IMG/VR virus record: IMGVR_UViG_2724679539_000005 | Location: 12,292-76,291 of that record | Strand: one strand, 5' to 3' | Length of the DNA: 64,000 bases | From: a virus | Lineage: Duplodnaviria; Heunggongvirae; Uroviricota; Caudoviricetes | Part shown: positions 51,540-52,700 of the stretch, one piece after another | How positions within the stretch are numbered: the first letter of the stretch is position 1 | Layout of the letters: every line of letters starts with the position of its first letter | Made by a program: the position numbers and the translations under genes | Notes under the pieces: model-generated | Seen by the model: only the letters and a program-made list of their open reading frames with translations | What the model was told of the DNA's origin: nothing | The model's database searches: none

Positions 51540-52700
51540 GTGTGATGTAGTGGATTACACAGGGGAATAGATTAAATGGTGTTCTGTTTATACAGGTTTA
51601 TTTGTTAGATCAACAATTTGGCATTTCTAAACAGATGTTTGAACGTTGCCAAATGTTTTGACAACACAAGAAAAGGGCTTGCTATGCCACGCATTACACG
51701 AAATAAGGCTATAAAAACAAAATAAATTTTAAAATTTGCACAAACGAGAGAACTCATTAAGAAACAAGCAGAACAATTTTTAGCCAACAATTTATGATGG
51801 TGTGTTGTAAGCCGCATTACACAAGGCTTTGCGAAAGTGATGTAAAAGTGAAGAAAGTAAGAATTGAACTTTTAAGCTACTTTTTCATTGAATTTTTAGT
51901 ATGGAATTACACAGGAATAAGTTAGGGATATTCTATGATTTACACAGGGAATATAGGGGGATTATGGCACACACATAGAAAGGCATTACACAGAGTGCTA
52001 TGTGACAAATGGATGTAACGAGAGGTTACATTCAGCTATCTGAAATGCTCTTTGTAAGAAAGTTGGTAGTAATGATATGTTACATAGACTAATTATTGAA
52101 TGTAACGATATTACACATCGGTAGTAACGATACGTTACATCGACAGATGATTGGATGTAACGAAAGGTTACACAATAAGACTATATTATTTATAATACTA
52201 AATAAAACTATATTAGATTATTAATTAGATCATAATAATATTCTTTATATCTATATATATGATCTTTTGCCTTCCGGCGTTAGCTTCACTCTCTGGCAAG
52301 CAGCCTTACTCCGCTACCTTTCGGGCTTCGTGGCTGGCCCGTTCCGCTCACACCGAAAGCAAAGCGTTACTTTCTTCGTGTAACTATCGTTGGCGGTAAC
52401 GCCCACGAAGAAATACTATTGCGCTGTGCGCAGAAGAGTAATCACCTAACCAATCATAGATTGCTTATGTGTTAACTCTCTCTACCTCTTAATTCCACTT
52501 CCTACATTTAATAACTCTCGTTATTCTCTGTAGTTGTGTAATTACTCGAAGAGAGAGCGGCTAAAGCTCAATTACACTCTGCTTTCCTCGTGTAATTTCA
52601 CTAAGCCTCAATACAATTCCGCTTCCTACATTCTGTAGTCGTGTAATTGTTTTCGGTGGAAAAGCCAGAGGCGACACCGAAAGAGAATTCTGATCTTATT
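51540..52700. repeat. dense non-coding repeat region: at least 12 copies of ATTACAC/GTGTAAT, five GTAACGA-N3-GTTACA palindromes, and longer direct repeats
   Basis: No ORF over about 1.9 kb (51500-53430). Palindromes GTAACGAGAGGTTACA, GTAACGATACGTTACA, GTAACGAAAGGTTACA between 52015 and 52170; direct repeats AATTCC(A/G)CTTCCTACATT...CTGTAGT(T/C)GTGTAATT at about 52490-52545 and 52615-52655; tandem GCGTTTTAGA x2 at 53165-53184. Confidence 0.7.

Follow-up and report, generated by a model that had tools for sequence, protein, structure and literature searches.

Origins with hairpin signals and the locus compared with them

The closest described counterparts of the locus reported here are replication origins in which iterons, a stretch rich in adenine and thymine (AT) and structured DNA lie side by side. 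In ori lambda, four iterons, an AT-rich stretch and a palindrome richer in guanine and cytosine (GC) follow one another in the direction of rightward transcription. The inverted terminal repeat of parvoviruses is T-shaped, with an outer stem around two small palindromes, and undergoes 'flip/flop' inversion. The present locus is a GC island at positions 52263-52440 of a 64,000-nucleotide (nt) stretch of Caudoviricetes DNA (IMG/VR record IMGVR_UViG_2724679539_000005, positions 12,292 to 76,291), called the window throughout. It holds a chain of small hairpins, among them a three-way junction that is conserved by compensatory change, and lies beside what appears, from sequence comparison, to be the replication origin of a satellite-like mobile island. 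Our tentative reading is that the chain is a cis-acting DNA signal of that origin.

Studies on RSF1010 oriV have shown that the plasmid's primase needs two hairpin signals of 40 nt, which become exposed as the DNA unwinds from the iterons and AT-rich stretch (PMC8567376). The plasmid pIGRK carries a palindromic sequence resembling a single-strand initiation (ssi) signal beside its iterons, which is dispensable and whose loss alters copy number and multimer formation (PMC6854812). Mini-hairpin motifs have been described at the G4 priming site, and GCGAAGC, an exceptionally stable 'mini-hairpin DNA' motif, occurs at both the G4 and ssiA priming sites (PMC13037366). The corresponding features of the window are as follows (bp, base pairs; aa, amino acids).

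52010-52172: iterons, five copies of a unit of about 21 bp with the core GTAACG-N4-GTTACA; across islands, repeat type and downstream initiator co-vary
52173-52262: AT-rich stretch of 90 bp, candidate DNA unwinding element, 87.8% AT, with GATC at 52228 and 52261
52269-52278: small hairpin GCC-ttcc-GGC at the AT/GC boundary; relatives have GGCG-n5/6-CGCC or TTTGCG-n5-CGCAAA there
52295-52339: module A, a near-invariant core with a proposed irregular hairpin; H0 GGC (52295-52297) with GCC (52337-52339), AAG bulge, H1 CAGCC (52301-52305) with GGCTG (52332-52336)
52344-52350: conserved motif CCGCTCA, in most island types, including those with module A replaced
52371-52413: three-way junction; P1 TTTCTTCGTG/CACGAAGAAA, P2 AAC-tatc-GTT, P3 GGCG-gtaa-CGCC
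52420-52432: hairpin D, TGCGC-tgt-GCGCA, predicted with DNA parameters; its core GCGCTGTGCGC, including the loop, is nearly invariant and occurs in all island types having the region
53801-54511, + strand: initiator of 236 aa, O-like, HTH_36, DUF6945-type; PHROG replication-initiator matches at E 2e-6 to 5e-4, Pfam HTH_36 below cut-off, relatives annotated DUF6945

By analogy, the element would function most like an iteron origin of the IncQ kind that bears ssi signals, and its layout is nearest to that of ori lambda. With RSF1010 it shares the order of initiator-bound iterons, AT-rich stretch and hairpin-forming signals (PMC8567376), a likeness from which the function here is argued by analogy, and small mini-hairpins closed by G..A (PMC13037366). 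The two differ in that RSF1010 has two simple 40-nt hairpins on opposite strands, whereas in the island a chain of modules that includes a three-way junction lies to one side of the AT-rich stretch; the sequences are not similar, and no recognisable RepB'-like primase or RepA-like helicase is encoded in the island. The order of iterons, AT-rich stretch and palindrome is also that of ori lambda, and the island initiator weakly matches O-like initiators. However, ori lambda lies within the O gene and has one palindrome, whereas the island origin is non-coding, lies about 1.6 kb upstream of the initiator gene and has several covarying hairpins, and no P-like helicase loader was found in the island. 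The primase- or PriA-dependent ssi signals of the G4 and phiX174 types and those of pIGRK and pHW126 are likewise structured single-stranded DNA near an origin; a priming role for the island element is putative, and it has no sequence match to them. Motifs of the CGCTCAC type, as in CGCTCAC(T)GAC, may bear a likeness to the PriA site of pBR322. The parvovirus repeat is alike in shape only, together with a 'flip/flop'-like loop inversion. It is about 125 nt long and terminal, whereas the island junction is about 43 nt, internal to a double-stranded bacterial element and shows no evidence of self-priming.

The small structured RNAs of satellites and prophages, P4 CI and the P1/P7 C4 RNA, resemble the element in being small, structured and non-coding. 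The C4 model matches the window at 20376-20461 (74.8 bits) and nothing at 50700-53500, where a search of both strands with Rfam 15 gave no match even at E<=10; at gathering thresholds, C4 and isrK near 20.3 kb are the only Rfam matches in the whole window. The element also differs in lying at the origin and not in an immunity region, with no promoter or terminator found. The P4-type reading in the original prediction, with a discrete small RNA or an antisense RNA conferring immunity, is not supported, given the lack of an Rfam match and of a conserved promoter or terminator, the Watson-Crick stems and the position beside the origin. In the prophage part of the window, isrK (58.7 bits) is directly followed on the + strand by the C4 antisense RNA (20279-20461 together), which corresponds to a P1/P7-type immunity module.

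Composition and fold of the GC island

The original prediction, made from the letters of the window, had described a GC-richer segment with a strong inverted repeat and no open reading frame (ORF) inside AT-rich non-coding DNA. The composition and the repeat were both confirmed. GC content is 53.4% at 52263-52440, against 35.2% in the surrounding non-coding stretch of about 2.6 kb (50800-53430) and 12% in the 90 bp immediately to the left; the island begins within about 10 bp of the AT-rich stretch. The inverted repeat has perfect 10-bp arms, TTTCTTCGTG (52371-52380) and CACGAAGAAA (52404-52413), around the 23-nt TAACTATCGTTGGCGGTAACGCC. By a hand estimate, not computed by a tool, about 0.1 perfect 10-bp inverted repeats with a short spacer would be expected by chance per 2.8 kb. 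The 23-nt 'loop' is itself made up of two mini-hairpins, AAC-tatc-GTT and GGCG-gtaa-CGCC, so that the inverted repeat is the outer stem of a three-way junction. The statement on reading frames was essentially right: a 46-codon ORF does overlap the segment (52259-52399), but it was ruled out as coding because relatives show single-base indels and wholesale sequence replacement. A scan of the whole window for tRNA and tmRNA genes found none.

Folding with DNA parameters set the structure apart from shuffled sequences on both strands. The z-score of the 49-nt junction piece was -5.7 on the + strand and -6.4 on the - strand, and that of the 148-nt island -4.0 and -4.95, respectively; 0 of 200 shuffles were as stable in either case. 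RNA parameters applied to 196 nt gave weaker values (z = -1.5 on the + strand and -3.0 on the - strand).

Covariation of the three-way junction

The junction fold is clearly conserved by compensatory change. A set of 133 sequences reduced to 21 distinct junction sequences, each with the same three-way junction as its minimum-energy fold. When 16 chosen variants were folded with DNA parameters, the junction was recovered in 31 of 32 strand folds, the exception being the + strand of relative L113. All three stems vary on both sides. P1 occurs as TTTCTTCGTG/CACGAAGAAA, TCGTGC/GCACGA, (TT)GTGCAA/TTGCAC(AA), TTGTGCA/TGCACAA and TTGTGCC/GGCACAA; P2 as AAC/GTT, AAAC/GTTT, TAAC/GTTA, TGGC/GCCA, AGC/GCT, AGGC/GCCT and GGGC/GCCC; and P3 as GGCG/CGCC, CTGAC/GTCAG, TGAC/GTCA, CCGT/ACGG, GCGT/ACGC and TCGT/ACGA.

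Nineteen distinct sequences were aligned by hand on the structure. Of the 341 cells, 302 were standard pairs, compared with a mean of 195 (standard deviation 6.5) after shuffling of partners, and none of 1000 shuffles reached 302. Sliding the 3' partner by one or two columns left at most 138 paired cells. The 15 core pairs (the six inner pairs of P1 and all of P2 and P3) were about 99% Watson-Crick, and 13 of them showed two to four pair types. Counts of pair types and of double changes did not exceed those in shuffles, which is expected for columns this variable. Pairs were counted by a purpose-written script on the hand alignment, as MAFFT, plain or N-padded, re-registered the columns. The alignment was made from the structure and hence leans toward it; the independent single-sequence folds are free of that bias. 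The description of the segment in the original prediction as structured and non-coding is supported, and the element is conserved, with hairpins kept by compensatory changes.

Module A and the remaining hairpins

Module A is 88-95% identical among E. coli and Citrobacter islands whose flanks are otherwise diverged. It occurs as four sequence types (A1-A4), in which H0 and H1 are retained through two-sided changes. The common fold consists of GGC/GCC or GGG/CCC, a 3-nt AAG or AAA bulge and a stem of 5-7 bp, with stem variants CAGCC/GGCTG, TC..ACC/GGT..GA, TGTCC-GG/CC-GGACA and TGACC-GA/TC-GGTCA; the internal loops T(A/T)CGC(C/T) and GGCT(T/A)C are conserved. The irregular hairpin is a tentative model. 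The window's own A1 sequence does not give it as the minimum-energy structure, its stability does not exceed that of shuffles, and MAFFT with RNAalifold recovered a 3-pair helix only, owing to register shifts.

Relatives often carry one or two additional hairpins of 6-7 bp with a 3-nt loop, such as TTCGCC-gtg-GGCGAA, TTACGCC-acg-GGCGTAA, TATGCC-gta-GGCATA and TTTGCC-atc-GGCAAA. Modules A, B (the junction), C and D recombine freely, and one and the same module A is found together with three types of junction. Relative L125 is without module A, and islands of the L010 type carry other hairpins in place of module A and the junction.

An alignment of 21 relatives also showed conserved elements to the right of the GC island.

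52510-52525: hairpin AATAAC-tctc-GTTATT, outside the GC island
52528-52543 and 52633-52648: block CTGTAGTnGTGTAATT, two copies
52559-52566: block GGCTAAAG
52664-52671: block GCCAGAGG

Origin context

The region to the left of the GC island shows the features by which iteron origins are recognised, namely at least three direct repeats of about 17-22 bp, an adjacent AT-rich element and a nearby matching initiator, whose family matches in PHROG and Pfam are weak. Many islands have TTATTAGATCA-like, GATC-bearing repeats at the position of the AT-rich stretch. Islands with a GC island about 97% identical carry at least four different repeat types, including GGTAGGTCACTGTGAACTA, CCCACAGAATTCTGTTA and CCTAGGAAATGAGTTCC, and more distant islands have yet other repeats, in 3-5 copies at the same place. 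Initiators sharing a repeat type are 87-99% identical for the E. coli types and 46-71% for the cross-genus types, compared with mostly 20-45%, and up to 72%, between repeat types. This coupling holds regardless of GC-island type and capsid backbone. The window, L001 and L010 have common repeats and initiators that are 87-92% identical; in L010 the capsid is 73% identical and the GC island is replaced, though its repeats match those of the window. Islands of the L008 type have a window-like GC island and initiators only about 42% identical to that of the window. The relatives L037 and L038 have the L010 backbone combined with initiators and repeats belonging to the L031 and L008 groups. Iteron and initiator modules have been exchanged between islands as a unit (the window, L008, L006, L031, L037 and L038). 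That the repeat type tracks the initiator and not the type of GC island points to an iteron-type origin, and the co-variation implies that the initiator binds the iterons. On this comparison, 52010-52262 would comprise the iterons and unwinding element of the island's replication origin.

The flanks of the origin differ in composition. Strand composition switches at the AT-rich stretch, from purine-rich on its left to pyrimidine-rich on its right, and ATTACAC(A/G) motifs lie on the + strand left of the origin (51200-52000), with their reverse complements to the right of it (52530-52650). A Rho-utilisation reading of the pyrimidine-rich tract at 52441-52760 was dropped, as the tract is rich in T and not in C (C 22%, G 13%). 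Resemblances to a DnaA box, an IHF site, RfaH-ops, nut and put, seen by eye only, were also dropped, as they are not conserved across relatives.

Favoured reading and proposed mechanism

The favoured reading is that the GC island is a cis-acting DNA hairpin module flanking the satellite origin, which upon melting may serve as a priming or helicase-entry signal; we would put this at slightly less than an even chance. It is preferred because of the origin context, the conserved fold, its DNA-like character, the modularity, the absence of signs of an RNA gene and the precedents described above. One feature expected of an ssi signal, a stable single-strand fold near the origin, is found, and the fold is conserved.

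Under this reading, the initiator would bind the iterons at 52010-52172 and the AT-rich stretch would melt, so that helicase could be loaded and travel, presumably, rightward along the + strand. The palindromes would then fold on the exposed strand or strands, and the folded modules, by analogy with ssiA and ssiB, may mark the start of synthesis by a primase or primosome as a single-strand initiation signal. The hairpins may additionally limit the spread of unwinding. The invariant loop of hairpin D puts CTG on the + strand, which would be the lagging-strand template of a rightward fork. CTG is the preferred start triplet of DnaG. A role of this CTG as a primase start is offered as a lead only.

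The DNA-like character rests mainly on the pairs. Among 317 junction pairs, 316 were Watson-Crick and one was G·T, whereas folded shuffles of the same sequences had about 14% G·U with RNA parameters. The few cells in which the junction stems are imperfect comprised one G·T versus two A·C, split between strands. Most junction loops have 3 nt, and that of P3, GAA in L002, is flipped to TTC in L021. Read on either strand, the junction consists of a hairpin with a pyrimidine loop and, after it, one with a G..A loop, and the - strand of one junction type contains GCGAAGC.

Several results count against a DNA priming signal. The argument from Watson-Crick pairing is only moderate, since stems of 3-5 bp disfavour wobble in RNA too. 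Similarity to known ssi classes (G4, phiX174, IncQ, ABC) and to phage or plasmid sequences did not exceed chance level, and no primase gene is recognisable in the island. Module A looks more RNA-like than the junction: its shape is irregular, a bulge is present and the internal loops are conserved, G·U pairs occur on the + strand in two of its types, and its fold is the minimum-energy structure in 13 of 16 variants with RNA parameters but in 9 of 16 with DNA parameters. Its near-invariant primary sequence suggests sequence-specific recognition, beyond what hairpin formation explains. Finally, insertion sequence (IS) elements interrupt the GC island in some E. coli genomes, and the distant relatives in Serratia, Sodalis, Buttiauxella and Kluyvera have no GC island, which is thus not essential to the family.

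Alternative explanations

The alternative that survives best, although somewhat unlikely, is a structured cis-acting RNA. A leader would be transcribed rightward through the origin toward the initiator operon, starting either at the boundary of iterons and AT-rich stretch or at 51490-51517, and its hairpins would control read-through, stability or origin activation; a trans-acting small RNA is the other form of this explanation. Two promoter-like sites in the window bear on it.

51490-51517, + strand: TTGACT-16-TATAAT (11/12 match), right after a terminator-like hairpin, aimed at the origin and with no ORF behind it
53283-53311, + strand: TTGACA-17-AATAAT with TG, directed at the small ORFs and the initiator; in relatives, the counterpart of this site is the top-scoring promoter match

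The folds backed by compensatory changes, the RNA-like traits of module A and its better folding with RNA parameters suit such an RNA, as do several P3 loops that are GNRA-like on the + strand (GTAA, GAGA, GTGA) and the position of the initiator gene downstream on the same strand. Promoter-like sites also overlap the last iteron and the AT-rich stretch, as GTTACA-18-TATAAT (10/12) in the window, with the last iteron as the -35, and as CTGATA-17-AATAAT in L021. However, these sites vary across iteron types, and AT-rich DNA is expected to yield -10-like hexamers. In the window, L018, L021 and L002, no conserved promoter or intrinsic terminator was found around the GC island on either strand. The junction was also rejected as an intrinsic terminator; it has no T-run on either strand, and the single call, weak and with a poor tail, fell on the - strand at hairpin D. 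Among strong promoters, only one keeps a consistent place, 0.45-0.85 kb rightward of the GC island; it faces away from the island and gives the operon a conserved promoter of its own. The absence of an Rfam match, the near absence of G·U pairs, the 3-nt loops, one of them flipped, and the independent exchange and deletion of modules also speak against RNA.

A more specific proposal, which we consider unlikely, is that modules A-D form a previously undescribed structured nucleic-acid element of a new satellite family carrying capsid and tail genes. The element would be either an RNA of at least about 150 nt with an iteron-embedded promoter, which couples initiator occupancy to origin firing or operon read-through, or a T-shaped DNA hairpin read by a helper-phage or host primase, which makes the start of replication helper-dependent.

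Double-stranded palindromes bound by protein are a distinctly improbable explanation. They could be operators for helix-turn-helix proteins of the island, a site at which a small tyrosine recombinase resolves multimers, or a site for gyrase or for partition, such as pSC101 par. Palindromes are typical of dimer binding, GCGCTGTGCGC and CCGCTCA are invariant in sequence, and a recombinase gene of about 186 aa borders the non-coding region in most relatives. Half-site recognition, however, would not be expected to produce nested palindromes of 3-5 bp with exactly mirrored substitutions across lineages; the lineage of the window has retained the GC island without the small recombinase; and likely operators are found elsewhere, in the AGAGCGTTTTA repeats at 53003-53186 and 60537-60577. 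The protein-binding hairpin that the original prediction had offered as its second option came nearer than its immunity RNA, but the prediction overlooked the origin context with its iterons and AT-rich element, and the two mini-hairpins. The AGAGCGTTTTA motif is repeated upstream of the operon promoter (53003-53186) and occurs again, inverted, between the Dit-like and integrase genes (60537-60577). These repeats are candidates for a shared operator.

A packaging signal (cos or pac) for a helper-phage terminase is very improbable: the island encodes a capsid protein and no recognisable terminase, a satellite needs such a site somewhere, and module A keeps its sequence across islands with differing replication modules, but there was no above-chance match in 50,697 phage records and none to the adjacent prophage, IMG/VR gave few matches (below), module A has four alternative sequences and is missing from one lineage, the location against the unwinding element suits an origin better, and the nested, exactly mirrored substitutions are left unexplained.

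The host island and its distribution

The window contains a prophage (about 1-49 kb) followed by an island of about 12.7 kb (about 49.3-62 kb). The segment lies in this satellite-like mobile island, and to that extent the original prediction, which pointed to P4-type satellites, is supported. Besides the initiator, the island encodes the following.

56626-57663: major capsid protein, lambda-E-type
57961-59787: tape-measure-like protein
59819-60532: Dit-like protein
60614-61978, - strand: integrase, DUF6538-type

No terminase or portal gene was recognised in the roughly 12.7 kb of the island. No sequence similarity links the island to the adjacent prophage, which was considered as a possible helper. 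Most relatives have, bordering the non-coding region on its left, a - strand gene for a tyrosine recombinase of about 186-205 aa (L002 4429-4989, L021 4166-4726, L047 3348-3908 and others). It is FimB/FimE-like in size, and neither the window nor E. coli C6 has it.

In E. coli C6, the same island lies alone at tRNA-Thr beside proA, and its non-coding stretch carries no annotation. Of 5426 complete E. coli genomes, 753 matched a 2-kb query of the origin region (51400-53400), almost all of them in the chromosome; none of the 50,697 phage records matched it. BLAST searches of phage and plasmid collections with the 2-kb and a 191-nt query gave no match or chance-level matches only, with two exceptions. 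Both are E. coli records of the plasmid collection, one being chromosome-sized at 4.9 Mb, and match the 2-kb query outside the GC island. Capsid homologues were found in Citrobacter, Klebsiella, Enterobacter, Cronobacter, Dryocola, Kluyvera, Buttiauxella, Serratia and Sodalis. Conservation of the segment in related elements, which the original prediction had named as a check, extends to the E. coli and Citrobacter islands and to other island types but not to the four genera named above as lacking it. IMG/VR gave six matches only, all with the 481-nt region at about 97% identity, and for three of these the contig also came up as an island in the capsid-protein search.

Metagenome contigs L080, L082, L055, L059 and L071 measure 12.6-13.2 kb, about the length of the island, and two independent food-metagenome assemblies gave contigs of 12,600 and 12,593 bp, one of them at 84x coverage. 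Such island-length contigs may be excised or packaged forms. Insertions were also observed. The E. coli genome NZ_CP196743.1 (H89/H133) has an insert of about 1.3 kb that separates module A from the three-way junction, close to 52362-52372 of the window. In this and several other E. coli genomes, the 2-kb region has an annotated IS3-family transposase, and IS1 insertions lie in the region in further ones; besides NZ_CP196743.1, the genomes concerned are H8-H13 and H23-H27.

Significance

Literature searches on DUF6945, DUF6538 and thrW with satellites found no description of this island family, and the hairpin module that appears to flank its origin, with a function argued from sequence, would be an addition to what is known of such islands. 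The structure is clean and its context new, while hairpins associated with origins are themselves a familiar theme. The element would mark the replication origin of a widespread family of mobile islands in E. coli, Citrobacter, Klebsiella, Enterobacter, Cronobacter and others, and it provides a usable signature for detecting them. Should it prove to be an RNA instead, it would represent a new family of structured RNAs whose covariation is unusually clean. The islands clearly exemplify modular evolution of origins, with iteron and initiator modules shuffled independently of an origin flank that stays conserved. A priming or helicase-entry role for the hairpin chain, if borne out, would explain how synthesis begins in a satellite that has no recognisable primase or helicase loader, and would reveal the helper or host factor on which the satellite depends.

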